From Desulfurivibrio sp. (GTDB lineage: Bacteria; Desulfobacterota; Desulfobulbia; Desulfobulbales; SURF-16), in the NCBI GenBank assembly GCA_003605035.1, contig QZKJ01000118.1:18304-82303 (forward strand): a DNA stretch of 64,000 nucleotides, read 5' to 3'. Shown in pieces: positions 4,471-59,445 of the stretch. The position numbers and the translations under genes were made by a program. Positions within the stretch are counted from its first letter, which is position 1. Every line of letters starts with the position of its first letter. The notes under the pieces were generated by a model. The model did no database searches, was not told where the DNA came from, and saw only the letters and a list, made by a program, of their open reading frames with translations.

Positions 4471-4505
4471 ATGTATCTGATTCTAACTTTGCTGAGGAGC
4501 AAGCT

Positions 4506-6439: not shown

Positions 6440-6443
6440 CTTT

Positions 6444-7643
6444 ATGTTGCTGATAGATATTGATGCCTGTATCGGCTGCGGACTCTGCGAGGCCAATTGC
6501 GCCTTTGATGCAATTCACGTGGTTGACGGGATTGCCGAGGTAAACGAAAACTGCACCCTGTGCGGCGGTTGCGTGGATGTCTGTGAAGCCGGCGCCCTGA
6601 AGATCGAGGGCAGGGAGCGCGAAGAAAAAGATGGACTGGCCGCCTGGTCCGGCATCTGGGTGTACGCCGAGTGCCGCCACGGCAGAGTCGCGCCGGTGAC
6701 CTTTGAGTTGCTCGGCGCCGGTCGCAGACTGGCCGACCTGAAGAAGGTGCCACTGTCCGCCGTGCTGCTCACCGACCAGGCGGGCGATATCCCGGCCTTG
6801 CTTATTTCCTATGGCGCGGACCAGGTCTATGTGGTCGAGGATCAGGCCCTGGCCGATTTTACCGATGAGGCTTACGGCAACGCCCTGGAGGACCTGGCCC
6901 GCCAGTACCGGCCGGAGGTGATTCTGGCCGGCGCCACGGCCATCGGTCGCTCCTTTATTCCCAGGGTGGCGACCTCGCTGAAAACAGGTCTCACCGCCGA
7001 CTGCACCCAGCTCGATATCCAGCCGGAAGACGGCGCCCTGCTGCAGACCAGACCCGCCTTTGGCGGCAACATCATGGCCACCATCGCCTGCCCCAACACC
7101 CGTCCGCAGATGGCCACCGTGCGGCCGCTGGTGATGAAGGCCCTGGCCGCTGATCCTGCCCGCACCGGCGCGGTGATCAACTGCCGTATCGCCCCGGAGC
7201 GGCTTCAGTCCCGGGTGAAGGTGCGCAACTTTGTCGCCCTGGAAGGAGACCAGGTCAATCTTAACGAGGCGGATATTGTGGTCTCAGGGGGACGCGGTCT
7301 GGAAGGGGAAAAGGGCTTTGCCCTGATTGCGGAGCTGGCGCACCTGCTCGACGGGGCGGTGGCTGCCTCCAGGGCCGCGGTTGACAGCGGCTGGATCCCC
7401 TATCCCCATCAGGTGGGGCAGACCGGTAAAACCGTCAGCCCCAAGGTCTATATTGCCTGTGGCATTTCCGGGGCCATCCAGCATCTGGTGGGCATGCAGT
7501 CAGCCGATACCATTATCGCCATCAACCGTGACCCGCATGCTCCCATTTTTGACGTGGCAACCTACGGGGTGGTCGGCGATGTTTTTGAAATTCTGCCGAA
7601 ACTGATTGAAAAAATCAAACAGGCCCGTACATCATCAATCTGA
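6444..7643 (+). CDS. etfA: electron transfer flavoprotein alpha subunit with N-terminal 2x[4Fe-4S] ferredoxin domain
   Basis: 399 aa. Two CxxCxxCxxxC motifs ([22 protein letters not shown]) are fused to an EtfA/FixB core ([21 protein letters not shown]). Confidence 0.9.
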
Positions 7644-7662
7644 CAACCAGGATACCAACGAC

Positions 7663-8409
7663 ATGAGCTTGGACGGAAAAATAGCGGTCGTCACCGGAGG
7701 AAGCCGCGGCATAGGCAAGGCTGTCTGCCTTCGTCTTGCCGGCCTGGGCGCCACTGTGGTAGTCAATTATGTCAGCCGGCCCGATGCGGCGGAAGCAACG
7801 GTGGCGGCCATCAAGGATGCTGGCGGTCAGGCAGCGGCGTATCAGTTCAACGTGGCTGATGCCCTTCAGGTGCAGGCCGCCTTTAAAAAGATACTGGCCG
7901 ATTTCGGCCGGGTTGATATACTGGTCAACAATGCGGGGATAACCCGCGACGGCCTCATTGCCATGATGAAGGAACAGGCCTGGGATGAGGTGCTTGACAC
8001 CAACCTCAAAGGCGCCTTCAATTGCATCAAGGCGGCCAGCCGCCCGATGATGAAGCAGCGCTGGGGACGGATTGTCTCGATCACCTCGGTGATCGGTTTT
8101 GCCGGCAATGCCGGGCAGGCCAACTATGCGGCGGCCAAGGCGGGGATGGTGGGGCTGACCCGTTCGGTGGCCAAGGAACTGGCATCCCGCGGGGTGACGG
8201 TCAATGGTGTGGCGCCCGGTTATATTGATACCGATATGACCAGGGAGCTTGCAGAAGAGGTAACGGAAAAAATCAAAGCGGAAATCCCCATGAATTCTCT
8301 CGGGACTGTTGAAGATGTGGCTGCTGCCGTGGCGTATCTGGCTTCAGAGGAGGCCCGTTATGTCACCGGCCAGTTTATCCATGTTAATGGCGGCATGTTC
8401 ATGGGCTGA
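7663..8409 (+). CDS. fabG: 3-oxoacyl-ACP reductase
   Basis: SDR motifs: MSLDGKIAVVTGGSRGIGKA, NNAGI, YAAAKAG. ATG at 7663 was chosen over the upstream track start at 7606, which overlaps etfA. Confidence 0.95.
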   Translation: MSLDGKIAVVTGGSRGIGKAVCLRLAGLGATVVVNYVSRPDAAEATVAAIKDAGGQAAAYQFNVADALQVQAAFKKILADFGRVDILVNNAGITRDGLIAMMKEQAWDEVLDTNLKGAFNCIKAASRPMMKQRWGRIVSITSVIGFAGNAGQANYAAAKAGMVGLTRSVAKELASRGVTVNGVAPGYIDTDMTRELAEEVTEKIKAEIPMNSLGTVEDVAAAVAYLASEEARYVTGQFIHVNGGMFMG

Positions 8410-8490
8410 AAAACAAAAAAGAGTGTATGCAGACCGCTGCTGTCCTGTCGGGCAGTATGATGGGTTATAAGGAAAAAGAAGGAGAAAAAC

Positions 8491-8721
8491 ATGTCTAAAG
8501 AAGAAAAACTTATTGATATCATTGTTGAGCAGCTCAGTGTAGACAAAGCAAAAGTTGTGCCAGCCGCCTCTTTCGTTGATGATCTCGGGGCAGATTCTCT
8601 GGACCTGGTCGAGTTGATCATGGCAATGGAAGAGGCTTTCGATACCGAGATCCCTGATGATGTGGCGGAAAAGATCACCACTGTTCAGCATGCGATCGAT
8701 CACATTAACTCCTTGAAATAA
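8491..8721 (+). CDS. acpP: acyl carrier protein
   Basis: 76 aa with the phosphopantetheine site [18 protein letters not shown]. Confidence 0.97.
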
Positions 8722-8810
8722 ATGCCTGTATCGCGTTTGCGGCTCTCCGTAAACGCTGATATGCGCTGCTGTTTCAGGTATTGTAATATCTCAAGCTTTC
8801 GAGGTTGCGA

Positions 8811-10052
8811 ATGGCGAGAAGAGTAGTCGTTACCGGTGTCGGGCTTGTTACCCCCTTAGGTACCGGAAATGAAAAGACATGGGATGGCATCTGTGCCGGC
8901 AGGAGCGGGGTCGCCTTGATAACCCGTTTTGATACGGCAGACCATGGAGTAAAAATTGCCGCCGAGGTCAAGGATTTTGTGGCCGAGGATTATATCGAGG
9001 CCAAAACCGCTAAACACCTGGATCTCTTTGTGCAGTATGCTGTGGCTGCGGCAGAGTTGGCCTTTACTGATTCAGGCCTGACGGTTACGGAGGAAAATGC
9101 CGCCCGGGTCGGGGTCATTACCGGCTGCGGCCTCGGGGGGCTGTCCACCATTGAGAAGTATCATCAGGTCTGCATGGAGCGGGGGCCGAAACGCATCACC
9201 CCTTTTTTTATTCCCATGGTCATACCCAACATGGGCGCCGGCCAGATCTCCATCGTCAAAAAGCTCAAGGGACCGAATCTGTCAGTAACCACCGCCTGCG
9301 CGGCCGGCACCCATGCGGTGGGCGAGGCCTTCCGGTTGGTGAGTTCAGGGGTCTGCGACGCGGCCGTAACCGGTGGCAGCGAATCGGTCATCTGCCCCCT
9401 GGCGGTTGGCGGCTTCAATGCCATGAAGGCCCTGTCCAGAAATAATGATTTTCCGGAGAAAGCCTCCCGCCCCTTTGACCGGGACCGCGACGGTTTCATC
9501 ATCGCCGAGGGCGCCGGCATTCTCATCCTGGAGGAGCTTGAACACGCCAGGGCCAGGGGCGCCCGCATCTATGCGGAAATGGCTGGTTACGGACTTTCCG
9601 GCGACGGCTTCCACATGGCTGCCCCGCCTGAAGACGGCGACGGCGCCATCCGCTGCATGAAGATGGCGCTGGCCGATGCCGGCATGAATGTTGACGAGAT
9701 TGACTATATCAATGCCCACGGCACCTCCACCCCTTTAAACGATGTGGTGGAGACCCGGGCCATCAAGAGCGTCTATGGCGACCACGCCAGAAAGCTCGCC
9801 ATCAGTTCCACCAAATCCATGACCGGCCACATGCTGGGCGGGGCAGGGGGAATTGAATCCGTTTTTACGGCCCTGGCCATTCATCATCAGCTTGCTCCTC
9901 CCACGGCAAATCTGGAACATCCGGATGAGGAATGCGATCTTGATTATATACCGGGCAGTGCGCGGGAGATGAAAATCCGGGCGGCCATGTCCAATTCCTT
10001 CGGATTCGGCGGCACCAACGCCGTCATCATCATGAAACGTTTTGAGGGATAG
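8811..10052 (+). CDS. fabF: 3-oxoacyl-ACP synthase II
   Basis: KAS II: RRVVVTGVG N-terminus, TACAAGTHA active-site Cys, NAHGTSTP, GFGGTNA. ATG at 8811 (the track lists TTG at 8805). Confidence 0.95.
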   Translation: MARRVVVTGVGLVTPLGTGNEKTWDGICAGRSGVALITRFDTADHGVKIAAEVKDFVAEDYIEAKTAKHLDLFVQYAVAAAELAFTDSGLTVTEENAARVGVITGCGLGGLSTIEKYHQVCMERGPKRITPFFIPMVIPNMGAGQISIVKKLKGPNLSVTTACAAGTHAVGEAFRLVSSGVCDAAVTGGSESVICPLAVGGFNAMKALSRNNDFPEKASRPFDRDRDGFIIAEGAGILILEELEHARARGARIYAEMAGYGLSGDGFHMAAPPEDGDGAIRCMKMALADAGMNVDEIDYINAHGTSTPLNDVVETRAIKSVYGDHARKLAISSTKSMTGHMLGGAGGIESVFTALAIHHQLAPPTANLEHPDEECDLDYIPGSAREMKIRAAMSNSFGFGGTNAVIIMKRFEG

Positions 10053-25828: not shown

Positions 25829-26917
25829 TTATCCTCCGAAGCAGATGCCGATTTCCCGGGCGGTCTGCACCTTGTCGCTGTCCAGCGGCACCTTTTTGCG
25901 ACTTTTGATGGCATCGGCCAGGGGAACGGCGCTCATCTGGTCGCCTGCCAGGGCCACCATCTGATCAAAATTCTCTTTTTCGGCCAGACGAACCGCCGTG
26001 GCGCCGAAGCGCAGGGCCAGCAGCCGGTCAAAGGTGGTCGGCGAGCCGCCCCGCTGCAGATGGCCGAGGACCAGGGAGCGGGTGTCCTTGCCCGTCCGCT
26101 TGTTGATCTCCTTAGCCACCCATTCGCCGATGCCTCCCAGCACCTTCTCCGACCGGCCGATCTCGCCGACGCCCTTGTAAATGGTTTCCTGATCAATGGC
26201 CCTTGCCCCTTCCGCCACCACCACGATATCGTAATGCTTGTCCAGCAGCTCGTTGTCATTGATCTTTTCACAGACGATATCAAGATCAAAGGGGATTTCC
26301 GGAATGAGGATGACATCCGCCCCGCCGGAGATGCCGGAATTCAGGGCGATCCAGCCGGAATCACGGCCCATGACCTCAACCACCATCACCCGGTCGTGGG
26401 ATTTGGCGGTGGAGTGGAGTTTGTCCAGGGCCTCGGTGGCGGTGGATACCGCGGTGTCAAAACCAAAGGTCAACTGGGTTGCCAGCAGATCGTTGTCAAT
26501 GGTTTTCGGCACGCCGATGACCGGCATGCCTTTTTCCACGGCAAAGCGATGGGCGATCTCCAGGCTGCCGTCGCCGCCGACCGCAATGTGACAGGAAAAA
26601 TTCATACGCAGGAAATTTCTCATGATCCGGTCGGAAACGTCGCGGATCTGGATCTCGCCGGCCAGGTTTTCAATAGGCATGGCAAAGGGGTTGCCCTTGT
26701 TGGTTGAACCAAGGATCGTTCCTCCGGTAGGGGTGATATCCGCCACATCCTCGGGCCGCAATCGCACCAGTTGGTCCTTGTCCAGCAAACCCAGATAGCC
26801 CTGGCGACTGCCGTAAACCTCCCACCCCCGGGAATTAGACGCCATGACCACTGCATAGATGACCGCATTCAGGCCTGGAGCATCGCCACCACCGGTTGAT
26901 ATAACAATTTTTTTCAT
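25829..26917 (-). CDS. pfkA: ATP-dependent 6-phosphofructokinase
   Basis: 362 aa. STGGGDAPGLNAVI, GGDGS, VPKTIDND, VEVMGRDSG. Confidence 0.9.
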   Translation of the reverse strand: MKKIVISTGGGDAPGLNAVIYAVVMASNSRGWEVYGSRQGYLGLLDKDQLVRLRPEDVADITPTGGTILGSTNKGNPFAMPIENLAGEIQIRDVSDRIMRNFLRMNFSCHIAVGGDGSLEIAHRFAVEKGMPVIGVPKTIDNDLLATQLTFGFDTAVSTATEALDKLHSTAKSHDRVMVVEVMGRDSGWIALNSGISGGADVILIPEIPFDLDIVCEKINDNELLDKHYDIVVVAEGARAIDQETIYKGVGEIGRSEKVLGGIGEWVAKEINKRTGKDTRSLVLGHLQRGGSPTTFDRLLALRFGATAVRLAEKENFDQMVALAGDQMSAVPLADAIKSRKKVPLDSDKVQTAREIGICFGG

Positions 26918-27225
26918 CGCCTATCCCTGATTGAATATTAAGAAAAAAAAATTCCAGCAATTTATTTCTGATTATAGAGGGTTAGATTTCCCCATGCAAA
27001 CAATTGTCACGGTTTTTTTGATTTCAGCGGCTGACCGTCATATTGACTTATACAATTTTATTACTTATTATCTCAATAAACATTACTAAATAGATTTTTT
27101 TGGGATTAAGCGAAATTTTGCGGCGACTTTTCAGTCCGATCGATTAATATGACTTAAAATTTAACCTGAAATTCTCGATTTTTTCATTTTTGATAATTAT
27201 TTTCAATTTTTAGGAGGTTTCAACC

Positions 27226-27555
27226 ATGTTGAATGTTACAGCGCTGGCGATAAAGAATCTCAAAGCGTATCTGGAGCAGAATAATATTGATTCTGCCATC
27301 CGGATTGCCCTGATGCAGGGCGGCTGAGCCGGGCCATCCCTTGGCTTGGCTCTGGATGAGCCGAAAAAGACGGACCAGGTATTTGACCAGGATAATCTGA
27401 AGTTTTTGGTTGAGACCAATCTACTGAACACCTGCGGCAGCATCAAGGTTGATTTTATTGATGCCGGCCCCCGTTCAGGATTTGCCATTTCTTCCAGCAT
27501 GCCGCTGGGCGGCGGTTCCGCCTGCGGATCCTGCGGCAGCAGCTGCGGCACCTGA
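27226..27555 (+). CDS. HesB/IscA-like selenoprotein (in-frame UGA = selenocysteine at 27325-27327)
   Basis: ATG at 27226 has AGGAGG 7 nt upstream. Reading through the TGA at 27325 joins two same-frame segments into 109 aa: MLNVTALAIKNLKAYLEQNNIDSAIRIALMQGG-U-AGPSLGLALDEP...FAISSSMPLGGGSACGSCGSSCGT. The U falls where IscA/HesB proteins carry the cluster-ligand Cys (GGGC-type motif). A SECIS-like hairpin follows directly. Confidence 0.8.
27326..27352 (+). promoter_or_regulatory. SECIS-like stem-loop immediately 3' of the in-frame UGA
   Basis: GAGCCGGGCCA (27326-27336) pairs with TGGCTTGGCTC (27342-27352) over 11 bp, including two G-U pairs. The loop is the 5-nt UCCCU. Confidence 0.6.
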
Positions 27556-27585
27556 GTTCAGTTTCCTGCATGAGTAATACGGAGA

Positions 27586-27614
27586 GCCTCGCCTGTTGGC
27601 GGGGCTTTTTTTTT
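27586..27614 (+). terminator. rho-independent terminator after the selenoprotein gene
   Basis: GCCTCGCC-TGTT-GGCGGGGC forms an 8-bp stem with one G-U pair, followed by nine T residues. Confidence 0.8.
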
Positions 27615-27731
27615 GCCCCTGCCGCTTCGTGAGAAGCGAAGGGAGAAGGGAGAAGGGAGAGCGGGGGCGCTCTTCGCGGACCCGGATTTGCCGGCAGCGT
27701 AAAATCTGCCTGAATCAGGTTGACTGAACTT

Positions 27732-29931: not shown

Positions 29932-30020
29932 GCCCGGATGGCGGAACAGGTAGACGCAAGGGACTTAAAATCCCTCGATCCTTAGTGATTGTGCGAGTTC
30001 GATTCTCGCTCCGGGCACCA
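29932..30020 (+). tRNA. tRNA-Leu (anticodon TAA), encoded CCA
   Basis: Acceptor GCCCGGA/TCCGGGC, anticodon stem-loop AGGGA-CTTAAAA-TCCCT, long variable arm, T-arm GCGAG-TTCGATT-CTCGC, discriminator A plus CCA. Confidence 0.93.
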
Positions 30021-31877: not shown

Positions 31878-31956
31878 AACGTTGTAGCGTCCGAACGTTC
31901 CAGCGTTTCAGTGATCAAACGTTTGAACGTTGCAACGTTACACCGTTTGAACCTTT
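31877..31956. repeat. tandem array of ~10 units of an 8-bp repeat (core AACGTT)
   Basis: AAACGTTG TAGCGTCC GAACGTTC CAGCGTTT CAGTGATC AAACGTTT GAACGTTG CAACGTTA CACCGTTT GAACCTTT. The array fills the whole convergent spacer between the pfk stop and the malQ stop. Confidence 0.85.
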
Positions 31957-33857
31957 CATTCCCCTGCCGACTCCAGTTGCCGGATTAGTTCGTCACGGCT
32001 GCTTCCTCCTGCTTCCCGCCTTCCGGCCCGGAGCGCCATGGCCAGGGCTCCGGGGATGTGCAGAGCGCGGCCCTGGCCGGCCAGCTCCGGGTAACGCTGG
32101 CGGAAATCCGGCGTAATCCGCAGGGACCAGTTGTGGTCGCCTGTTGTGCCCGGAATATTGTAGGCCTCCTCGATGCCGAACAGATCGGTGAAAAAGAGCA
32201 TGACGTTTGTTCCCGGCCCGACAAAGAGATCGGCGAATTTGGCCTGGGCGAGCGCTCCGGCTGCAGACGCAGTGCGTTCTATCCATTCTGCCCGTTCGCG
32301 CTCGGGGATGCGCAGCCGCTCCGCCAGATAGGCGGCCTGCCGGTCTGCGACGCCCGAAGCAACCCATTGTCCGGCCAGCTGCCAGATCGACGGGGTATCA
32401 TGATTGCCCAGCATCAGCCAGTCTTCCGGCCGGGCGTTTTCGCTGCGGTAGACATCGCGGGGGTTGTCCAGGTCCGCCTTCTGGGTAACCCGGAAACGGC
32501 CGAGTCCGTGACGCGCCATCACCTGGCGGATCGGGCAGGGCTGGGTGCTGAGAATTTCGCAGGAGATCTCGCAGACGCCGCGGCAGTTGTCCCGGGCCGA
32601 TTCCATCACCATCTCAAAGAGCGCGGCATAGCGGTCGATCTGTTCCGGCTCCAGCTGCCGGACCCAGTCGTCATCCCAGCGTCTGGCCGCGGGGTTGAGC
32701 TGCCCGGGCCGGGCAATGGCAAAGGGGGCCAGCTCCGGATGATCGGCCAGGTTCGGGGAGGCGAAGAGCCGGGCGCCCTGCTGCACGGCCAGGATGGGGT
32801 CCGGCTGACCGGCGCGGTAGACCCATGGGCAGATGAGACCATGGGGGTGATCGATGCGCAGCCCTTCGTATTCTTCAAACAGTTTGTCAATCCTGGCCCG
32901 GAAGAAACGAAGCGCCGGGCCGGGCCGGCCATCCGACTGGTGATACCGGCGCGGATCGAGCACCGCGTAGTTCCACGGCTGGCCGGCCGGGTTGGTGCGG
33001 CTCGGCGGGGCGCCCATCACGTAATCGCGCAGCAGAAAGGACCGGGCATACCACGCGTCGCGGCCGGATAGGCCGATCTGGCAGTCACCGAACAGGTTGA
33101 GGCCGCGCAGGCCGCAGCCCAGCCTGAACTCCCGGTGCAGCTCGGCCAGCAGGAACTGGATGAAACAGTATTCGTCGATCTCCGCCTGATGACATGTACG
33201 CAGCTCGGCCAGCCTCTGGCGGGCCGCCTCTTCCTGACCTCTGGCCGGCGCGAAGAGACTCTGGTCCAGTCCTGCCTGGCCGTCTTCTCCCCAGTGCCGC
33301 CAGTTGCGGCCGTGGTAGCGGCGGCGGAGGATTTCATAGCAGCCGTCCCGCTCCAGCCAGTCGGCATGGCGGCGCCGGAAGGCGGCAAAGGCCTCCTGCT
33401 GCTCCAAAGACCCTGCGCTGAAACGGTGGCGCGCCTCCTGTTCGATAACCGCGATGGCCCGGGCGGCAAAGAGTGACTGGACGCGGTTTGCCGGCAGGGG
33501 CCGCTGGGCGGCCAGCCCGGCCAGTTGATCAGCGGCCAGTAGATTCCAGGGCGGCTCGCACAGACGCAGGGTGGCCAGGGAGAGGGGATTTCTGGAAAAC
33601 AGGCTGCCGTCGTAGGGGGAGGGATTGGCCGGGGTGGTGATGCCCTGGGGGCCGAGCTGGATGCCGTTAAAGCCCAGGATCCGGGCAAAGTCCAGAAAAT
33701 CGGCCGCCCCCCTGGAATAGGGCGAGCCGCGGCCGATGTCCTCCTCCGGCCGGCTGGGAAAGGCGGCGTCATGCATGCCCAGCAGAAAGTTGTGGATGCC
33801 GAGCACCTGCAGCGCCTCCTTTACCGCCGGCCTCAGTTTTTCAAAATGTTCGATCAT
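31956..33857 (-). CDS. malQ: 4-alpha-glucanotransferase (amylomaltase, GH77)
   Basis: 633 aa. GH77-like catalytic motifs GLRIDHPHGL and MLGNHDTPS. Sits within the glucan locus. Confidence 0.8.
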   Translation of the reverse strand: MIEHFEKLRPAVKEALQVLGIHNFLLGMHDAAFPSRPEEDIGRGSPYSRGAADFLDFARILGFNGIQLGPQGITTPANPSPYDGSLFSRNPLSLATLRLCEPPWNLLAADQLAGLAAQRPLPANRVQSLFAARAIAVIEQEARHRFSAGSLEQQEAFAAFRRRHADWLERDGCYEILRRRYHGRNWRHWGEDGQAGLDQSLFAPARGQEEAARQRLAELRTCHQAEIDEYCFIQFLLAELHREFRLGCGLRGLNLFGDCQIGLSGRDAWYARSFLLRDYVMGAPPSRTNPAGQPWNYAVLDPRRYHQSDGRPGPALRFFRARIDKLFEEYEGLRIDHPHGLICPWVYRAGQPDPILAVQQGARLFASPNLADHPELAPFAIARPGQLNPAARRWDDDWVRQLEPEQIDRYAALFEMVMESARDNCRGVCEISCEILSTQPCPIRQVMARHGLGRFRVTQKADLDNPRDVYRSENARPEDWLMLGNHDTPSIWQLAGQWVASGVADRQAAYLAERLRIPERERAEWIERTASAAGALAQAKFADLFVGPGTNVMLFFTDLFGIEEAYNIPGTTGDHNWSLRITPDFRQRYPELAGQGRALHIPGALAMALRAGRREAGGSSRDELIRQLESAGE

Positions 33858-33858
33858 G

Positions 33859-33929
33859 AACCCAATAACCCAACCAACCCAACCAACCCAATCAACCCAA
33901 TTAACCCAATCAACCCAATCAACCCAACC
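33859..33929 (-). repeat. tandem array of ~8 units of a 9-bp repeat (plus strand AACCCAAYC; mRNA strand TTGGGTTGR) spanning the glgB stop to the malQ start
   Basis: AACCCAAT AACCCAACC AACCCAACC AACCCAATC AACCCAATT AACCCAATC AACCCAATC AACCCAACC CCCCC. The glgB stop codon (33919-33921) lies inside the array, and the malQ ATG (33857) is 2 nt from its end. Confidence 0.9.
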
Positions 33930-35813
33930 CCCCCTTCAGCCGAAACACCACCACAGCCAGGGGCGGCAGGGTGATATTGATCGACTGGTACTGGCCGTGC
34001 ATGGCCACCGGGGTCGCCTCCACCCCGCCCAGGTTGCCCTGGCCGCTGCCGCCGTAGAGGGTGGCGTCGCTGTTTATCCGCTCCTCCCAGTAGCCCGGTT
34101 CCGGCACCCCCAGTCGGTAGTTGTGGCGGGGTACCGGGGTGAAGTTGGCGATGCAGACCAGGATGTCACGGCTGTCCCTGCCCCGGCGCAGGAAACTGAC
34201 GATGCTCTGGTTATGGTCGGTGCAGTCGATCCAGGCAAAGCCGGCCTGGTCGAAATCAAGCTCGTGCAGGGCAGGCTCACCGCGCAGAAAGGTGTTGAGG
34301 TCCCGCACCCAGCGCTGCATCCCCTGGTGCAAGGGATACTGCAGGTGGGACCAGGCGATGCCGGCATCATGGTTCCATTCCGGCCACTGGGCGATTTCAT
34401 TGCCCATGAACAGCAGCTTCTTGCCCGGGTGGGTGTACATGTAGCCGTACAGCAGCCGCAGGTTGGCGAACTTGCGCCACTCGTCCCCCGGCATCCTGGC
34501 GATCATCGAGCCCTTGCCGTGGACCACCTCGTCGTGGGAAATGGGCAGCACGAAATTCTCCTGAAAGGCGTAGAGCAGGCTGAAGGTGAGGTTATGGTGG
34601 TGATGGGGGCGGTGAATCGGGTCCTTGCCCATGTAAAGCAGGGTGTCGTGCATCCAGCCCATGTTCCACTTGAAGCCGAAGCCGAGCCCCCCCACATAGG
34701 TCGGCCGGGAGACCATGGGCCAGGCGGTGGACTCCTCGGCCATGGTTATGATGTCCGGATGTTCCGCGTAGACCAGCTCGTTGAAGCGCTTGATGAAGGT
34801 GATGGCCTCCAGGTTTTCGCGGCCGCCGTAACGGTTGGGAATCCATTCCCCCTCCTTGCGGGAATAGTCGAGGTAGAGCATGGAGGCCACCGCATCCACC
34901 CGCAGGCCGTCGATATGGTAGACCTCCAGCCAGAACAGGGCGTTGCTCAGCAGGAAGTTGGCCACCTCGCGCCGGCCGAAGTTGAAGATGAAGGTGCCCC
35001 AGTCCTGGTGCTCGCCCTGGCGGGGGTCGGCATGCTCGTAGAGATGGGTGCCGTCAAAGTAGCCGAGGCCGTGGGCGTCACGGGGGAAATGGGCCGGCAC
35101 CCAGTCGAGAATGACGCCGATGCCGTGCCGGTGCAGGGTGTCGATCAGGTACATGAAGTCCTGGGGGGTGCCGAACCGGCTGGTGGGGGCGAAATAGCCG
35201 ATGGTCTGGTAGCCCCAGGAGCCGTCAAAGGGATGTTCGTTGATCGGCAGCAGCTCCACATGGGTGAAGCCCAGGTGACTGACGTATTCGGCCAGTCTGC
35301 CGGCCATGTCCCGGTAAGTGAGAAAGCCTCCTTCTTCGTCGCGCATCCAGGAGCCGAGATGCACCTCGTAGATGGCGATCGGCGCGTCGATCCGGTGGCG
35401 CTCGGCCCGGGAGGCCAGCCATTCACTGTCCTGCCACTGGTAGCCGGCGAGATCCCAGACGATGGAGGCGGTAGCCGGCCGTATTTCAAAAAAGAAGGAA
35501 TAGGGATCGGCCTTCTGCATCCGGTAACCCTGGTACTGGGAGGTAATATCGAACTTGTACAGGGCGCCTTGACCGATGCCGGGCACAAAGCCCTGCCAGT
35601 GGCCGGTGTCGCCGGTGTTTTGCAGCACATTGGCAGTCGGGTCCCATTTGTTGAAATCACCGACCACCGCTACCCGGGAGGCGTTGGGGGCCCAGACCGC
35701 GAAATGGGTGCCCTGGCCAACGGGATGGGCGCCGAGTTTCTCCCAGGCCCGGTAATGGGTGCCCTCGGCCAGCAGGTGCAGGTCGTAGTCGCTCAGAAAA
35801 TCCTTGCTTGCAT

Positions 35814-35817
<4 letters not shown>
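33919..35817 (-). CDS. glgB: 1,4-alpha-glucan branching enzyme
   Basis: 632 aa. GH13 motifs [40 protein letters not shown]. Confidence 0.93.
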
Positions 35818-39161
<3,344 letters not shown>

Positions 39162-39171
39162 CGGCTCTCCT

Positions 39172-39251
39172 TAAGCGTTACAGCGTTTCAACGTTTCAAC
39201 GCTCGAACGCTCGAACGCTTAAACGTTTGAACGCTTGATCGCTTGAACGTC
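39172..39251. repeat. tandem array of 10 units of an 8-bp repeat (core AACGYT) between the glgE stop and the treS start
   Basis: TAAGCGTT ACAGCGTT TCAACGTT TCAACGCT CGAACGCT CGAACGCT TAAACGTT TGAACGCT TGATCGCT TGAACGTC. The array ends 1 nt from the treS SD (GGAGAG on the minus strand). Confidence 0.9.
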
Positions 39252-39255
39252 TTTC

Positions 39256-41265
39256 CTACATAAAGTAATCGAAATCGTGCTCGGTGCGCAAGCGCCGCCG
39301 TACCCGGAAGATCTGGGCCGGGGAGGAGGCGGGATCGAGCCGGACGTAATTGCGGCTGCCCTGCCACAGGTAGCGGCTGTCGCCGATCAGCTCGTGGACC
39401 TGGTAGATCTCGTTGTCAGCGATGGCCAGTTCCTCCAGGGGCACCTCCAGCCAGCCTTCCTGCACATGGTGGGGGTCGAGGTTGACCGCCGCCAGGATGA
39501 TGTTGCTCAGGTCCTCGGTGTGCTTGCCGTAGAAAAGCAACTGCTCATTATCCACCGGGTAGAAGGCCAGTCCGCGGTTGGCGGCCAGGGCGGCATTTTC
39601 CCGGCGGATGCGGTTGATTCTGGCGATAAAGGCGCGCAGGTTGCCGGGACTGCTCCAGTCCCGCGGTTTGATCTCGAATTTTTCCGAATTGAGATATTCC
39701 TCGCTGCCCGGCAGGGCCTCGTTTTCCAGCAGTTCAAAGCCGCTGTAAATGCCGTAGCTGGCCGACAGGGTGGCGGCCAGCACCAGGCGGGTCATGAAGG
39801 CCGGCCGGCCGCCGAACTGCAGATATTCGGGCAGGATGTCCGGGGTGTTGGCAAAGAAGTTGGGCCGGAAATATTCGTAGACCTCGGTGTTGACCAGTTC
39901 CTGCAGATACTCGGTCAGCTGCCATTTGGTGTTTCGCCAGGTGAAATAGGTATAGGACTGACTGAAGCCGGCCTTGGCCAGGGCATACATGACCCGGGGC
40001 CGGGTAAAGGCCTCGGAGAGAAAGACGGTGTCCGGATAATCGCGGCGCACCTCGCTGATCAGCCATCCCCAGAAGCGCAGGGGCTTGGTGTGGGGATTAT
40101 CCACCCGGAAGATCCGCACCCCGCGGTCGATCCAGAAGAGGACCACGCTTTTCAGTTCCAGCCACAGGGACTGCCACTCCTGGCAGTCGAAGTTGAGCGG
40201 GTAGATATCCTCGTATCGTTTCGGTGGATTTTCGGCGAATTTGATGGTGCCGTCCGGCCGGTGCCGGAACCATTCCGGATGTTCGCGCACGTAAGGATGA
40301 TCCGGCGAACACTGGAAGGCGAGATCCAGGGCCAGGGTCAGTCCCTGTCTGCCGGCGGATTCGAGCAGGGCGTCAAAGTCCGCCAGGGTACCGAGGTCAG
40401 GATGCACATCCTTGTGGCCCCCCGCCTCGGAGCCGATGGCCCAGGGGCTGCCGGGGTCCCCCGCTTCCACCGACAGCCGATTGTTGCGGCCTTTGCGGTT
40501 GGTGCGGCCGATGGGATGGATGGGGGGAAGGTAGAGGACGTCGAAGCCGAGACGGGCGATCTCCGGCAGCATCTTTTCCAGGTCGGTAAAGGTGCCGCTC
40601 CGCTCCGGCGAGGAGGTAACGGAACGTGGGAATATTTCATACCAGGCACTGCAGGCGGCAATAACCGGTTCCACGGTCACGACGAGGTGCGGCTCGAAAA
40701 CACTCTCCCGGCTGCGATCAGGATAGCGGCTCATCATGGCGCCGGCATCGGCGGCGGTGGCAAGGGTTACCCGCTCGGCGGCTGATCCGGCGCCCCGCAG
40801 TCTGGCAGCCAGGGCTGAAAGCCACTGACGGTCCGGCTCGGCCGCCCGCCCGAGGGCGGCCTCGATCATGGCCGCGCCTTCCAGTACTTCGCTCTCCACT
40901 GTTTGGCCGGCGGAGAATTTCTTCCGCAGATCCTTCTGCCAGGTGGAAAAATGATCGATCCAGGCCTTGACCGTGTACTCAAAGGTGCCGAGGCTGTCCA
41001 CCGGGAATGCCGCACTCCACCGGTCACCTGCAAGCCGGGCCATGGCGGTTTCCTGCCAGTTCCGCTCAGCCTGCCGGTGGCAGAGGACCGCTTGCACCTC
41101 ATCGTGGCCATCGGCAAAAACAAAGGCTGAAACCTGGACTTTTTCGCCAATGATGCGCTTGATCGGGAAACGGCCGCAATCCACCTGCGGAGAGATGTTT
41201 TCTATCCACACTCTGGCCGCTTTCTCCCTTGGCAGGGGAGGGGGGAGGTTCTGTTCTGCCGGCAT
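39256..41265 (-). CDS. glgE: alpha-1,4-glucan:maltose-1-phosphate maltosyltransferase
   Basis: 669 aa. N-terminal domain IENISPQVDCGRFPIKR and GH13 core GVRIFRVDNPHTKP, characteristic of GlgE. Confidence 0.9.
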   Translation of the reverse strand: MPAEQNLPPPLPREKAARVWIENISPQVDCGRFPIKRIIGEKVQVSAFVFADGHDEVQAVLCHRQAERNWQETAMARLAGDRWSAAFPVDSLGTFEYTVKAWIDHFSTWQKDLRKKFSAGQTVESEVLEGAAMIEAALGRAAEPDRQWLSALAARLRGAGSAAERVTLATAADAGAMMSRYPDRSRESVFEPHLVVTVEPVIAACSAWYEIFPRSVTSSPERSGTFTDLEKMLPEIARLGFDVLYLPPIHPIGRTNRKGRNNRLSVEAGDPGSPWAIGSEAGGHKDVHPDLGTLADFDALLESAGRQGLTLALDLAFQCSPDHPYVREHPEWFRHRPDGTIKFAENPPKRYEDIYPLNFDCQEWQSLWLELKSVVLFWIDRGVRIFRVDNPHTKPLRFWGWLISEVRRDYPDTVFLSEAFTRPRVMYALAKAGFSQSYTYFTWRNTKWQLTEYLQELVNTEVYEYFRPNFFANTPDILPEYLQFGGRPAFMTRLVLAATLSASYGIYSGFELLENEALPGSEEYLNSEKFEIKPRDWSSPGNLRAFIARINRIRRENAALAANRGLAFYPVDNEQLLFYGKHTEDLSNIILAAVNLDPHHVQEGWLEVPLEELAIADNEIYQVHELIGDSRYLWQGSRNYVRLDPASSPAQIFRVRRRLRTEHDFDYFM

Positions 41266-41640
41266 TGTTTTTGCTCCGTGAAGATATTTGGGAGGGTTGA
41301 TTTTGGCTCACCATTAACCGCAATATTTATGCCATCCATTGATGACGAGGCAGATCAGGAGGCTGGCAATGGGGTGCGTTAGCTGATAAGGGTATCGCAA
41401 GCGGCGCAACGAACAAGAAAAGGCCGCGGACAGGATGACCTGCCGGGCAGCGGCAGGGACATTCCCGTGAAGTTGCGTTAGAGGGGAAAAGTCGAGGGCC
41501 GGAATCGTTTAATCAGGAGTGGCGATGATTTTGCATAACAAAGCATGAGTTTGCAGAAAGCTGTCTGAAGAATGAGTCGCAGCCGGGCAGTACTGCCGGG
41601 CGTCGGCTGCGGCAGATAAATCCGGCAAGGAGGAAAAATC

Positions 41641-42165
41641 ATGCTGCTGACCAGCAAGAAGGCCGTTATCCTGGTGGAGACGCTCTACAATGATCGTGAA
41701 TTCTGGTATCCGTACTATCGTCTCAGGGAAGAGGGGGCGGAGGTTTGTGTGGTCGGCCCTGAGGCCGGCAGGGAGTACCGGGGCAAAGATGGCATCATGG
41801 CCAGGGCGGACAAGGGCATGAACGAGGTCCAGGCCCGGGACTATGATGCCATCATCATCCCGGGCGGCTATGCGCCTGATCATATGCGCCGGCACCCGGC
41901 CATGGTGAGCCTGGTGAAGGATTTTCACGCCGCGGGCAAAATCGTGGCAGCCATCTGCCATGCCGGCTGGATGCTCGCTTCGGCCGATATCCTCAAGGGG
42001 AGAACGGTCACCGCCTTTTTTGCCATCAAGGATGATCTGGTCCATGCCGGCGCCAATTTCGTTGACCAGGAGGTGGTCAGCGACGCTAATCTGGTCACCA
42101 GCCGCAAACCCGAAGACCTGCCGGCTTTCATGCGGGTGATCATCGACAAGATGGCGGGGCGCTAG
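41641..42165 (+). CDS. DJ-1/PfpI-family protein (intracellular protease/amidase type)
   Basis: 174 aa. IIIPGGYAPD and the nucleophile elbow AAICHAGWML. GGAGGA lies upstream of the ATG. Confidence 0.85.
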   Translation: MLLTSKKAVILVETLYNDREFWYPYYRLREEGAEVCVVGPEAGREYRGKDGIMARADKGMNEVQARDYDAIIIPGGYAPDHMRRHPAMVSLVKDFHAAGKIVAAICHAGWMLASADILKGRTVTAFFAIKDDLVHAGANFVDQEVVSDANLVTSRKPEDLPAFMRVIIDKMAGR

Positions 42166-42324
42166 CCTGAATGCCGTTGTGTGCTGGTGTCTGAACAAAC
42201 ACAAATGCAGTTAGTTGCAACGAAATGCTCAGAGGTCGGGTTAACGCTTGTGCTTGCCAGATGATCAGCATGGTCGAGCCCTGGCAAGGGAATACCCGCG
42301 GCTTCGCACTTGTCCCGCGGAAAC

Positions 42325-44469
42325 TCACCCGGTGGATTTTGCCGGGGACTTCAAAACGACGAGGGAGCGGGAAGCTGTTTCATGCTTTCCCCGTACCGGC
42401 CTGCCGCTCTGTTTGGGGTCCCAGGTTTCCCCGGTATGCAGAACAAGTTCCCACCGGTTGCCGGGAACATCACGGGGCAGGACAAAGGAGACCGCCTCAT
42501 CCTGGGCATTGAGGATGATCAGCAGGGTGTCATCGAGGATTTTATTCCCTTCTTCATCCATCTCTTCGATGGCGTCGCCGGCAAGCCGGAAGCCGAAACA
42601 GCACAAATCGGGATTCCGCCACTCCTCTTCGCTCATCTCTCTGCCGTTCGGCATGAACCAGGTCAGGTCCTTAACCTCGGAGCCGCTGATCTTTCTTCCC
42701 ATGAAGAACCTGCGGCGCCGCAGCACGGGGTGCTTCCGGACAAGGGAAACGACCTGTCTGGTAAATTCCAGCAGGGCACGATCCTCTTCAGCAAGATCCC
42801 AGTCGATCCAGGAAATTTCGTTGTCCTGGCAGTAGCTGTTGTTGTTGCCCTGCTGGGTGTTGCCCATCTCGTCACCGGCCAGCAGCATGGGAACTCCCTG
42901 GGACAGGAACAGGGTGGCGATAAAGTTTCTTTTTCGCTGCTGCCGCAGGAGCCTGATTGCAGGGTTGTCGGCGGGCCCCTCCGCTCCGGTGTTCCAGCTC
43001 AGATTGTCATCCATGCCGTCACGGTTTACCTCGCCATTGGCCTCATTGTGCTTTTCGTTGAAGGAGACGAGATCGTGCAGGGTAAAACCATCGTGGCAGG
43101 TGACAAAATTGATGCTGGCATAAGGCCGGCGACCGTCAAGCTGATACAGATCGGAGGAGCCGGTCAGACGATAGGCCAGATCGCTCAGCTGGCCCTGGTC
43201 GCCACGCCAGTAGCGCCGGACCGTATCGCGGTATTTACCGTTCCACTCGGCCCAGAGAATGGGGAAGTTGCCCACCTGATAGCCGCCTTCTCCCAGATCC
43301 CAGGGTTCGGCGATGAGTTTGACCTGGGAGAGGACCGGATCCTGATGAATGATATCGAAAAAGGCGCCCAGCCGGTCCACGTCGTGCATCTCCCGGGCCA
43401 GGGCGGCGGCGAGATCAAAGCGGAAGCCGTCCACGTGCATTTCCAGCACCCAGTAGCGCAGACTGTCCATGATCATCTGCAGAACGCGGGGATGCATCAT
43501 GTTCAGGGTGTTGCCGGTGCCGGTATAGTCCATGTAGTAACGGGGATTTTCCGGGTCAAGACGGTAGTAGGCGGAGTTGTCGATGCCCCGGAAGGAGAGG
43601 GTGGGGCCGAGCTGATTACCCTCGGCGGTGTGATTGTATACCACGTCGAGGATCACCTCCAGCCCTTCCCGGTGGAATTGTTTTACCATCTCTTTGAACT
43701 GGGGTACCTGTTCGCCCCGGCCGGTCTTGCTGCAATATCGGGCATCAGGAGCGAAATAGCCGATGGAATTGTAGCCCCAGTAGTTGGTCAGCCCCCTGTC
43801 CAGCAGATGTCCTTCCACCACGAAATGGTGCACCGGCATCAGTTCCACCGCCGTAACGCCGAGGGCTTTGAGATGCGCGATAACAGCCGGATGGGTCAAG
43901 CCGGCGTAAGTGCCTCGTATTTCCGGTTCCAGCGCTGGGTGCAGGGCAGTCAAACCCTTGACATGCAGTTCGTAGATAAAGGTTTTATACCAGGGAATCT
44001 TGGGAGGACGGTCCCCCTCCCAATCAAAGGCGGGATCAATGACCACGGATCTGGGCGTGAAGGGGGCACTGTCACCGGGATTTCTGGAAAGGTCGCCTTC
44101 CGCGTCCCCGATGGTGTATCCGAACACGCAGTCATCCCACTTGATCGTGCCCGTGATCGCCTTGGCATAGGGGTCCAGCAGCAGTTTTGCCGGGTTGAAG
44201 CGCAGCCCCGATTCCGGTTCATAGGGACCGTACACCCGGTAGCCGTAGAGCTGGCCCGGCTTGATCCCCGGCAGGTAGGCATGCCAGACCTGATCGGTAT
44301 ATTCCGGCATCCGGATGCGCGCACTTTCCTGATACTGCCCGCTGTCATCAAACAGGCAGAGTTCCACCTTCTCGGCGCCGCCCGAAAAGAGGGCGAAGTT
44401 GCATCCCCTGCCGTCCCAGGTCGCTCCCAGGGGATAGGGATTGCCCGGTAAAACTTTCAGCTGATGCAT
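42325..44469 (-). CDS. glgX: glycogen debranching enzyme GlgX
   Basis: 714 aa. [23 protein letters not shown]-terminus. GH13 motifs [32 protein letters not shown]. Confidence 0.93.
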
Positions 44470-45155: not shown

Positions 45156-46874
45156 TCAGGAATTGAGGAGCAGCTTCAGTTCCGGCCACGGCCTGGTGTT
45201 GAGCACATCGTCAGCCGCCAGCCAGCCGCGCCGGGCCTGCCAGACCCCGAAATCCATGTGCGCGAGGGCTTTGACGCTGTGGGCATCGGTGGAAACCGCC
45301 ACCTTGACCCCCATTTCCCTGGCCAGCTTGAGATAGGTGGCGTTGAGGTCGAGCCGGTCAGGATTGGCGTTGCATTCCAGAAAACGCTTTCTCTGCGCCG
45401 CGGCGGCGATGAGTTCTTCCATGTCGACTTCATAGGGCGGCCGCTGGTTGATGAGCCGGCCGCCGGGATGGCCGAGGATGCGGAAATAGCGCTTGTCCAT
45501 GGCCCGGATAATCCGTTCGGTCTGTTTCCGGCGGGACAGGTTGAAATGCGAATGCACCGAGCAGACGGTGAAGTCAAGTTCCCGCAGGATATCATCGTCC
45601 AGGTCCAGGCTGCCGTCCTCCAGGATGTCCACCTCCACCCCCTTGAGCAGCAGGATGCCGTCGAGCCGCTCGTTCAGCCGGTCAATGTCCCGGATATGGG
45701 CGCGCAGCCCATCGGCATCAAGCCCGTTGGCCGGCGTCACCAGCCTGGCGTGTTCGGTGATGGCCAGATACTCATAGCCGCGTTGCCCGGCCGCCCTTGC
45801 CATGGCTTCCAGCCCTGCCTGGCCGTCGCTGCGCGTGGTATGGGCATGGAGATCACCGCGAATGTCCCGCAGGGTCAGCAGCCGGGGCAGTTCACCCCTG
45901 GCGGCGGCCTCGATTTCTCCCCGGTTCTCCCGCAGTTCCGGCGGGATAAAGGGGAGACCCACCTGCTGGTATACCTCCTCCTCGGTGCGGCCGGCGATCC
46001 TCTGCCCGTCCTTGAACACGCCGTACTCGTTGATCTTCAGTTTTTTCTTTACCGCCATCCGGCGCACCGCGATATTATGGGCCCGGGAGCCGGTGAAGTA
46101 GTGCAGCGCCGCGCCGTAGCTCTCCTGGCCCACGGCGCGCAGATCCACCTGCACCCCGGACCTGAGCAGCACGGTGCAGCGGGTTGCCCCCTGGGAGACG
46201 ACTTTTTCCACCTCCTCATAATCGACCAGACGTTGCATCACCCGGGCATTTTCGGCATGGGTCACCAGGATGTCAAGATCGCCGATGGTTTCCTTGCGGC
46301 GGCGGTAGCTGCCGGCGATTTCCACCTGCAGCACCCCTGCGGTCTGCCGGAGATAGGCGAGCAGCGGGGCGGCGATTTCCATGGCCGTAGCCAGTTTGAG
46401 GCGCTGTTCGCTGGCCGCCAGCCGTTCGAGTTCCTCACCGATGTTCAATTCGGTCTTGGCGCCAAAACCTTCCAGCTGCCGTACCTTTTCCTGCTTGACC
46501 GCCTCCCGGAGCCCCGCCAGGGAGGTGATGCCGAGTTCCCGGTAGAGGGCTCTGACCTTGCGGGGACCAAGGCCGGAGATGCGCAGCAGGTCGACGAGGC
46601 CGCCGGGCACCTCCTCCTCCAGTCTGCGCAGAAAAGACAGGGAATCGCTGTCGACCATTTCCAGGATTTTAGCGGCCAGTTCCTTGCCGATGCCCGGCAG
46701 CCGGGTGAGATCCTCGCCCGCGTGAACCATTTCGGCCAGGCTGGCGGACAGCTCCGCCACCGTGCGCGCCGCCTCGCGATAGGCCCTGATGCGGAAGGGG
46801 TTGTCCCCCTTGATGTCGAGCAGGTCGGCAATGCGGTTGAAAATTTCGGCGATATCGGAATTATGGACAGGCAT
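45156..46874 (-). CDS. polX: DNA polymerase X family protein with C-terminal PHP domain (PolX)
   Basis: Start set at MPVHNSDIAEIFNRIADLL (ATG at 46874). HhH and Pol-beta nucleotidyltransferase motif GSYRRRKETIGDLDILV, then PHP motif RGDLHAHTTRSDG. The track start at 47243 adds about 120 implausible residues. Confidence 0.88.
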   Translation of the reverse strand: MPVHNSDIAEIFNRIADLLDIKGDNPFRIRAYREAARTVAELSASLAEMVHAGEDLTRLPGIGKELAAKILEMVDSDSLSFLRRLEEEVPGGLVDLLRISGLGPRKVRALYRELGITSLAGLREAVKQEKVRQLEGFGAKTELNIGEELERLAASEQRLKLATAMEIAAPLLAYLRQTAGVLQVEIAGSYRRRKETIGDLDILVTHAENARVMQRLVDYEEVEKVVSQGATRCTVLLRSGVQVDLRAVGQESYGAALHYFTGSRAHNIAVRRMAVKKKLKINEYGVFKDGQRIAGRTEEEVYQQVGLPFIPPELRENRGEIEAAARGELPRLLTLRDIRGDLHAHTTRSDGQAGLEAMARAAGQRGYEYLAITEHARLVTPANGLDADGLRAHIRDIDRLNERLDGILLLKGVEVDILEDGSLDLDDDILRELDFTVCSVHSHFNLSRRKQTERIIRAMDKRYFRILGHPGGRLINQRPPYEVDMEELIAAAAQRKRFLECNANPDRLDLNATYLKLAREMGVKVAVSTDAHSVKALAHMDFGVWQARRGWLAADDVLNTRPWPELKLLLNS

Positions 46875-47067
46875 CGGTTTCACGCTGCTCCTTGAATGCT
46901 GACTTTGGTGCTCGAAGGCATAGCCGGCAACTGCGGTTTCTTGGGTCCGACAGACCTGGCGGAATCGTCCCTCGGGCCTGCTTGTCAGGCTTGCTGAAGT
47001 GATCGACAGCAAATTACGTTCCATCTTTCTTCCGCTTGCCGATAATGACTGTTCATTCACCGGCAAA

Positions 47068-47083
47068 TGGAACATATATTGCA
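47068..47083 (+). promoter_or_regulatory. sigma54-like -24/-12 element upstream of the ferredoxin gene
   Basis: TGGAAC-ATATA-TTGCA with GG-N10-GC spacing, about 150 nt upstream of the ATG at 47231. One mismatch to the TGGCAC consensus. Confidence 0.45.
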
Positions 47084-47230
47084 ATTTCAGGTTCTCACGG
47101 CGGGCAGCTGCCAAGGCCTGTCCGGCCGGCTGCTCACGGATATCAGCAAGTAACATGAAGAGGGAATACGACGTGGTCATTGCCGGCACGGGGCCGCGGC
47201 GAGGCCATGCGGGAAAAGGAGGGTGGGCTG

Positions 47231-47431
47231 ATGGCAAAACCATTTTATATTGATGAACAAGAGTGCATCGGCGACGGCAGCTGCGCGGATATCTGCCCCG
47301 CTTGTTTCAGCTTCGCCCCCGGCATGGATACGCCCAGGGTGATCAGTTTTGACTGTGAGAAGGAATTGGTTGAGGCAGCCATGGAAAATTGCCCGACCAA
47401 CTGTATCCATTACGAGGATGAGCGAGGTTAA
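47231..47431 (+). CDS. small [4Fe-4S]/[3Fe-4S] ferredoxin
   Basis: 66 aa. MAKPFYIDEQECIGDGSCADICP...CPTNCI. AAGGAGGG lies 7 nt upstream of the ATG. Confidence 0.85.
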   Translation: MAKPFYIDEQECIGDGSCADICPACFSFAPGMDTPRVISFDCEKELVEAAMENCPTNCIHYEDERG

Positions 47432-47748: not shown

Positions 47749-47859
47749 CAAAAAAACTACCAGGGTAAATAAGGTAATAATAATTATCAATAAACTGAAC
47801 TTTCTCTTAAATATTCAGTCTTCATAGTGAATATTTAAAAATCAGCATGGTAATCAAAA

Positions 47860-56089: not shown

Positions 56090-56188
56090 GCGGTACCGGC
56101 CCCTCCGGGCCAGAAAAAAAGTGGAGAGGGCAGCCACCCGGCTGTCCCCTCGCTTCATAACCTTTCAACCAGAAGGTTCCCACCCACC

Positions 56189-58695: not shown

Positions 58696-58705
58696 GCCAA
58701 ACCCC

Positions 58706-59440: not shown

Positions 59441-59445
59441 GCGCC

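Follow-up and report, generated by a model that had tools for sequence, protein, structure and literature searches.

The window analysed here, a stretch of 64,000 nucleotides from a Desulfurivibrio sp. contig (QZKJ01000118.1, positions 18,304 to 82,303), carries at positions 27226-27555 what is very probably a single gene for a 109-residue HesB-like selenoprotein (IscA_HesB_Se), in which the UGA at 27325-27327 encodes a selenocysteine (Sec) that replaces the first ligand cysteine and the selenocysteine insertion sequence (SECIS) most likely lies at 27346-27364. IscA_HesB_Se is a subfamily of the A-type iron-sulfur carrier fold represented by IscA, SufA and ErpA. Since the window protein belongs to a known, curated and catalogued family, we regard the gene as already known. 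An earlier note, made from the letters of the sequence alone, had proposed a HesB/IscA-like selenoprotein gene split by an in-frame UGA, and the score on the NF038090 profile, the Sec/Cys correspondence, the agreement in fold and the literature all speak for this proposal; the position at which it had put the SECIS has to be revised. The main elements are:

27226-27555, plus strand: complete coding sequence of an IscA_HesB_Se selenoprotein, 109 codons with Sec as codon 34, as judged by translation, NF038090, PF01521 and 84 orthologous Sec-type genes.
27212-27217, plus strand: Shine-Dalgarno sequence AGGAGG, 8 nucleotides 5' of the ATG; (A)GGAGG is kept in close relatives.
27325-27327, plus strand: in-frame UGA, the predicted Sec codon U34, in the motif U-A-G-P; the codon is TGA throughout the 84 orthologues, and paralogues and more distant homologues have TGC or TGT instead.
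27346-27364, plus strand: hairpin B, most likely the SECIS, with the stem 27346-27352/27358-27364 and the loop UGGAU at 27353-27357, as judged by conservation, fold and the criteria for bacterial SECIS elements.

Reading of the sequence gives a 109-codon frame that runs on the plus strand from the ATG at 27226 to the TGA stop at 27553-27555 and is interrupted solely by the TGA at 27325-27327, in the context IRIALMQGG-*-AGPSLGLALDE; its product ends with GGGSACGSCGSSCGT. The Shine-Dalgarno sequence, the start codon and the single interruption are thus all present as the earlier note had described them. In the mechanical list of open reading frames (ORFs), the locus appears as a 33-residue piece, a 69-residue piece that starts at the TTG at 27346, and a 113-residue antisense ORF; the 69-residue fragment and the spurious nature of the antisense ORF had been recognized before, and both observations hold.

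The family of the protein follows from profile scores, which were obtained with U34 replaced by C. The NCBIfam model NF038090 ('IscA_HesB_Se') is matched with 144.4 bits at a cutoff of 85 (E = 1e-42), with residues 1-102 of the protein lying on profile positions 1-101 of 101, and PF01521 (Fe-S_biosyn) is marginally passed, with 28.9 bits and a gathering score of 26.3. The cutoff of TIGR01911 (HesB_rel_seleno) is not reached by the window protein (40.7 versus 66.35 bits), nor are those of the equivalog models for IscA, SufA and ErpA (TIGR02011, 34.2 versus 150.6; TIGR01997, 38 versus 136.2; NF010147, 29.8 versus 117); in all, the scores on the equivalog models span 27-38 bits, and the cutoffs 117-181. 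HesB-like proteins are an established prokaryotic selenoprotein family. Its bacterial members numbered 11 in 2006 and included those of D. vulgaris, D. desulfuricans, S. fumaroxidans, S. aciditrophicus, G. sulfurreducens and D. acetoxidans (Zhang et al. 2006, PMC1794560), and a 2026 review lists the HesB-like selenoprotein with the motif UxGP (PMC13188914). We took the 2006 sequences from the supplement of PMC1794560: the proteins of D. vulgaris (114 bits), S. fumaroxidans (114 bits) and S. aciditrophicus (107 bits) fit NF038090, i. e. the same model as the window protein, so that the earlier note was right in stating that HesB-like selenoproteins had been predicted in previous surveys. The C. 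perfringens sequence belongs to TIGR01911 instead (98.8 bits). The Sec columns of the 2006 sequences and of the window protein align, and the identity to the D. vulgaris protein is 43%.

These comparisons place the window protein among the deltaproteobacterial HesB-like proteins: It shares with them the profile, the Sec column, the motif GG-U-x-G-P...L.LDE, a length of about 100-110 residues and the Gly/Cys-rich C-terminal tail. Nothing essential sets it apart, except that the Desulfobulbales group to which it belongs adds an invariant Cys70 and, as a strongly conserved neighbour, a divergently oriented 6-phosphofructokinase gene. The HesB-like proteins of Methanococcus and Clostridia (TIGR01911) are homologous small HesB/IscA-related proteins and carry Sec at UxGP; the window protein differs from them in scoring below the cutoff of their model. 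In the archaeal members the SECIS is located in the 3' untranslated region, whereas the hairpin of the window gene lies within the coding sequence (PMC13188914). For the HesB-like protein of M. maripaludis, the selenoprotein nature has been verified by mutagenesis and labelling with 75Se, and its function there is unclear (PMC11097638).

The second body of evidence comes from homologues. A protein search yielded 269 of them, most of which carry Cys at the TGA column in the alignment (QGGCSGPSLGLALDE). At the level of genes, a scan of one genome per species found 515 relatives; the 80 best loci, three metagenome loci and the window make up the Sec-type set of 84 genes, with 81 distinct 75-nucleotide segments around the TGA and 82 distinct coding segments. 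The Sec-type loci come from Desulfobulbus, Desulfopila, Desulfoprunum, Desulfogranum, Desulfosediminicola, Candidatus Electronema, Desulfocapsa and many metagenome-assembled genomes; cultured strains with the orthologue include Desulfobulbus elongatus DSM 2908, Desulfopila aestuarii DSM 18488 and Desulfoprunum benzoelyticum DSM 28570. At 64-95% identity, all 84 genes have TGA at the identical column, and TGC or TGT stands there in the six paralogues or more distant homologues that we examined. The comparison with Cys-containing homologues, which had been suggested as a check of the Sec assignment, therefore turned out in its favour. The amino acids that flank the TGA to either side are kept, and their synonymous codons vary freely; the arginine at position -8, for instance, is invariant and is encoded by all six codons. 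We can therefore conclude that both halves are translated in one frame.

If the TGA were a genuine stop, the locus would be either a pseudogene or the source of two small products, one of 33 residues and one of 69 residues from the TTG at 27346. This is exactly how mechanical ORF calling and several public gene calls divide it, and no Sec machinery is visible in the window. Yet it is hard to reconcile with a stop codon that TGA is fixed at one column in 84 orthologues under purifying selection on both sides in a single frame, that homologues have Cys at this very column, and that the curated selenoprotein model NF038090 matches the full length. Moreover, the Shine-Dalgarno sequence and the ATG belong to the upstream part, whereas the TTG of the 69-residue piece falls within the conserved LGLALDE motif and is not preceded by a Shine-Dalgarno sequence. 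We therefore consider a genuine stop to be barely credible. The same holds for the idea that the UGA is read as a standard amino acid (Trp, Cys or Gly), by reassignment or by suppression independent of a SECIS, for which there is next to no chance. Its starting point is the W that the four closest full-length protein records (P0001, P0002, P0006 and P0013) show at the TGA column. In the one record that was checked, the DNA has TGA and the translation with table 11 differs from the deposited protein, and the W can thus be regarded as an artefact of the gene caller. In the window, TGA is the commonest stop codon and the normal stop of 24 of the 37 family-supported genes, including the HesB-like gene itself; the codon is thus not reassigned, and its recoding depends on the local context. 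A hairpin conserved at the distance of a SECIS is specific to the TGA-type genes.

With the UGA read as Sec, the residue falls on a site of known relevance in the fold. In searches with phmmer against PDB sequences, residue 34 aligns with the Cys of GGC-SG in Aquifex Aq_1857 (1NWB, E = 4e-9), of SGC-SG in E. coli IscA (1R94, 1S98) and of TGC-AG in SufA (2D2A). This aligned Cys is the first cluster-ligand Cys of A-type carriers, Cys35 in E. coli IscA by standard numbering, and the Sec would then occupy just the position that the earlier note had named. The structure was modelled with AlphaFold2 on P0017, the closest full-length Cys orthologue, which is 69% identical to the window protein. The model has a mean predicted local distance difference test (pLDDT) score of 83 with a disordered tail at residues 97-109, and its best PDB matches are IscA and SufA (1R94, 1S98, 2D2A), the [2Fe-2S]-bound IscA 1X0G, Aq_1857 and HI1723, with a template modelling score of about 0.7. 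Thus, the window protein resembles the A-type carriers IscA, SufA and ErpA (PF01521; 1R94, 1S98, 2D2A, 1X0G) in its fold, as judged from the orthologue, and in having Sec34 on the first ligand Cys; it differs from them by the Sec in place of Cys and by a C-x2-C-x3-C tail rather than CGCG. This tail comprises C100, C103 and C107, of which C103 and C107 are invariant, and its pLDDT is below 50. The C-terminal cysteines, in which the earlier note had seen the remaining ligands, are present; their role as ligands is plausible, and is one that we infer. Sec34 and the C-terminal CxxCxxxC tail would, according to this idea, act together as ligands in iron-sulfur or iron handling.

The identification of hairpin B as the SECIS is based on comparison of the Sec-type genes and on the published criteria for bacterial SECIS elements, which comprise an apical loop of 3-9 nucleotides on an upper stem of 4-16 bp, a G within the first two loop positions, a distance of 16-37 nucleotides between UGA and loop, and a minimum free energy of -7.5 kcal/mol or lower (PMC13188914). 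Hairpin B agrees with all four: it has a loop of 5 nucleotides, a stem of 7 bp, a G at loop position 2 that is followed by another G, a spacing of 25 nucleotides, and a free energy of -10.8 kcal/mol in the window (z = -3.4), with a mean across the family of -9.9 kcal/mol. Among the 81 distinct segments, 97.5% of the cells are paired; the hairpin is perfect in 67, and the other 14 have lost the outermost pair alone. The loop is UGGAU in 74 of the 81 and UGGAC in the remaining seven. The consensus structure computed by RNAalifold is hairpin B, not the hairpin at 27326-27352 (hairpin A). Over the 82 distinct coding segments, the entropy of synonymous codons collapses at codons +7 to +12 only, and this frozen block coincides exactly with hairpin B. 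The shares of the frozen codons among the Sec-type genes are:

Codon +7: TTG, 82%.
Codon +8: GCT, 100%.
Codon +9: CTG, 100%.
Codon +10: GAT, 91%.
Codon +11: GAG, 100%.
Codon +12: CCA, 84%.

At codons +1 to +6, all synonymous codons are in use across the same segments. The motif of hairpin B, GGCTCTGGATGAGCC, occurs a single time in the window. Five of the six Cys-type genes examined lack hairpin B and have other codons in the hairpin stretch, with folds of 0 to -4 kcal/mol and with L054 not folded in isolation. Compared with the consensus bacterial SECIS (the bSECISearch model; E. coli fdhF type), hairpin B is alike in loop, G, stem, spacing and minimum free energy; it differs in that it has no evident lower stem, that a small covarying hairpin occupies the spacer, and that a more stable competitor overlaps its 5' arm.

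This competitor is the structure that the earlier note had described as consistent with a SECIS. It and the spacer hairpin are as follows:

27326-27352, plus strand: hairpin A, an 11-bp stem with the loop UCCCU; it forms an alternative structure in this lineage and is probably not the SECIS.
27334-27344, plus strand: spacer hairpin CCN/UCNYU/NGG of 3 bp, which separates the UGA from the SECIS and can coexist with hairpin B, as judged by covariation at 27336-27342.

Hairpin A does fold with the 11-bp stem and the 5-nucleotide loop that had been described (-20.7 kcal/mol, z = -4.9, for the hairpin alone; -27.1 kcal/mol, z = -1.96, with an outer helix of 5 bp). Position 27326 is, however, the G of the UGA rather than the first nucleotide after the codon, and the stem thus takes in the last two bases of the codon. 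Hairpins A and B are mutually exclusive, and the segment UUGGCUC is common to both. One may ask whether hairpin A is the functional SECIS here, either by itself or as the base of a larger element, with hairpin B conserved for another reason. Minimum-free-energy folding of the window and its nearest relatives yields hairpin A, the apical three base pairs of which show real covariation, and according to reviews some bacterial SECIS elements depart from the consensus. Even so, we judge this explanation to be very unlikely: Two of the four criteria fail, as a G is missing from the first two positions of the loop UCCCU and this loop follows only 9 nucleotides after the UGA, where 16-37 nucleotides have been published. 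In the 81 genes, 88% of the cells are paired and just 17 sequences keep the hairpin intact; breaks affect three of its pairs, in 53, 22 and 16 sequences, and the synonymous sites in its 5' arm vary freely. In addition, a stem that holds the GA of the UGA would have to melt at decoding. The hairpin at 27346-27364 is therefore the better-supported SECIS.

The part of hairpin A that does show a signal of its own is the spacer hairpin, the loop of which is UCNYU across the family. The pair 27336-27342 is paired in 86% of the sequences, with the variants CG, UG, AU, GC and UA; the other third-position columns reach 7-44%, and none of 20,000 permutations was as high. The overall covariation score was treated with caution, as a codon-phase-matched slide by +3 scored equally high, and this pair alone survived the specific control.

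Because of known ribosome footprints and the SECIS of E. coli fdhF, we envisage that the 5' arm of hairpin A would be enclosed by the ribosome while the UGA occupies the A site, and that UUGGCUC would thus be freed to form hairpin B. Hairpin B would bind the complex of SelB, GTP and Sec-tRNA(Sec) and direct the decoding of the UGA. A bolder idea goes further and regards the Sec signal as a switchable structure, in which the covarying spacer hairpin and the invariant SECIS hairpin compete with the much stabler hairpin that sequesters the UGA and the 5' arm of the SECIS, which could tune the efficiency or the conditions of Sec insertion, with Sec34 as a true selenium ligand of an iron-sulfur cluster and a tandem Cys paralogue as a backup at low selenium; as a whole, this idea is rather unlikely.

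Several observations weigh against the interpretation of the locus as a gene for an iron-sulfur-type selenoprotein with hairpin B as its SECIS. Regarding the hairpin, its conservation comes without compensatory changes, and the pairing is deduced from invariance and thermodynamics; hairpin A exceeds it in stability by about 10 kcal/mol in the window; searches of Rfam at the gathering and E-value thresholds gave no match to a SECIS family over the hairpins; and the Cys paralogue L035 still forms a hairpin similar to hairpin B (-9.7 kcal/mol). The latter could be a remnant SECIS, such as has been described for the HesB-like family. Regarding the protein, the C-terminal CxxCxxxC sits in a disordered Gly-rich tail and is not the canonical CGC, and the only phenotype reported for the disruption mutant of M. 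maripaludis is that it is unimpaired in nitrogen fixation (PMC11097638). Regarding the machinery, the tRNA scan and the NCBIfam annotation of 30 ORFs revealed no selA, selB, selD or tRNA-Sec in the 64-kb window.

Likewise, tRNA scans of 60 related loci found no tRNA-Sec, and the flanks of these loci contain neither selA nor selB nor selD. At the level of the lineage, Desulfotalea psychrophila, another member of the Desulfobulbales, has four entries in the file of SelA/SelB/SelD/YbbB sequences and is credited with 12 selenoproteins (PMC1794560). One of these four entries has the N-terminus of a SelB-like GTPase. The actual insertion of Sec and the binding of SelB are presumed from sequence. The window also contains, at 53372-63637 on the plus strand, a curated neighbourhood that NCBI links to selenoproteins: a Mop-type aldehyde oxidoreductase (NF045668), 'diclust_near_Sec' (NF045663), a DVU_1556-family methyltransferase, the radical SAM (seleno)protein TrsS (NF045646), a DVU_1553-family AMP ligase and an XdhC-type maturation factor. 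TrsS is matched over the whole profile without an in-frame TGA and appears to be a Cys form. A scan of the window for further TGA-interrupted frames gave 137 candidates, which is too noisy to be used in this GC-rich sequence.

Among the Sec-type Desulfobulbales genes, Cys70 (27433-27435, motif TCGS) is invariant in all 82 distinct sequences. It is absent from D. vulgaris, S. fumaroxidans and other published HesB-like selenoproteins as well as from some Cys-type homologues (TTGD), and it could be a clade-specific extra ligand or a resolving cysteine. In five related loci a tandem Cys-type paralogue with TGC or TGT adjoins the Sec gene (L035:1434/1858, L054:5676/6100, L069:6100/6798, L085:3100/3542 and L086:2679/3130); the window has no paralogue of the Sec gene. 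The Cys copies have other codons at the place of the SECIS hairpin. For L085, just two changes in this stretch, TTG>CTG and GAG>GAA, set the Cys copy apart from the adjoining Sec gene, and it looks as if it carries a decaying SECIS. Such Sec/Cys tandem pairs could be isoforms for use with and without selenium. Public gene calls err in three ways in this family: the TGA is taken as Trp (P0001, P0002, P0006 and P0013), the gene is split into pieces of 33 and 69 residues (as at L081:9881-10210), or an antisense ORF with no Pfam family is called instead; in L085, such an artefact opposite the Sec gene is annotated as a gene (3386-3817, minus strand).

Three further features belong to the locus of the HesB-like gene itself:

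27581-27614, plus strand: intrinsic terminator with a 13-bp GC-rich stem, the loop UGUU and a following U-run; the fold of 27556-27625 has -27.2 kcal/mol (z = -2.96).
27043-27071, plus strand: candidate sigma-70-type promoter TTGACT-17-TATTAT, weak evidence, with 10 of 12 matches in a consensus scan.
27210-27551, minus strand: antisense ORF of 113 residues, judged spurious, from the mechanical ORF call only and without family support.

The terminator stretch also gives weak matches to Rfam families of the terminator type, and because of this terminator the HesB-like gene appears to be monocistronic. The -10 region of the candidate promoter falls in a block that is conserved among close relatives. 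The antisense ORF was rejected as a gene: the coding signal, i. e. amino acids kept and synonymous sites variable, is in the frame of the plus strand.

Upstream and divergently oriented lies a 6-phosphofructokinase gene (25829-26917, minus strand), which is found 270-850 nucleotides upstream of the Sec gene in 71 of the 84 loci. The intergenic region contains blocks conserved among close relatives, such as TTTAACCTGAAATTCTCAATTTGTCATTTTTAGATATTTCAAC; the conserved arrangement may reflect either shared regulation or simply stable synteny. The window has two matches with one mismatch to the Fur-box palindrome TGATAATnATTATCA, where 0.04 would be expected: one at 27191-27205, 6 nucleotides before the Shine-Dalgarno sequence of the HesB-like gene, and one at 47775-47789, upstream of a gene for an ErcA-like iron alcohol dehydrogenase. 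The former was rejected as a conserved regulatory site, since none of 82 orthologues has it upstream and a deletion of 6 nucleotides relative to close relatives accounts for it; it is probably fortuitous. Downstream, several relatives have a tRNA-Leu(UAA) directly after the HesB-like gene, and in the window this tRNA follows sucCD (29932-30020). In the closest syntenic contig (JGI Ga0209164_1000130), the HesB-like gene is separated from sucC by an acetyl-CoA synthetase gene (L081:10537-12429), which is missing from the corresponding stretch of the window (27556-27719).

Farther away, a cluster for fatty-acid synthesis (2455-10052, plus strand) has the order plsX-fabH-...-fabG-...-fabF. Between fabH and fabG it includes an acyl-CoA dehydrogenase, for which the acryloyl-CoA reductase AcrC is the best match, below the cutoff, and the beta and alpha subunits of an electron-transfer flavoprotein, the latter with an N-terminal ferredoxin domain. 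At 31956-44469 (minus strand), the translations were assigned by eye to alpha-glucan genes, i. e. 4-alpha-glucanotransferase, GlgB, a fusion of TreS and maltokinase (1,115 residues), GlgE and GlgX, which would form a cluster for a GlgE-type pathway; a PolX-type polymerase (45156-47243, minus strand), also named by eye, follows this run.

For annotation, the locus is a textbook case of a selenoprotein gene that is split by ORF finders, with public records that show the 69-residue truncation, Trp at the UGA or the antisense ORF. For the prediction of SECIS elements, it shows that the most stable local hairpin can act as a decoy, and it is modestly useful that the comparative data place the SECIS at the UGGAU hairpin, 25 nucleotides 3' of the UGA. 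For the biology of the family there is little new: catalogues have listed HesB-like selenoproteins since the mid-2000s, the subfamily of the window protein has its own NCBI model, and at least 80 species representatives of the Desulfobulbales type have an orthologue. The chemically interesting point is a possible ligation of an iron-sulfur cluster by Sec and what that would change.

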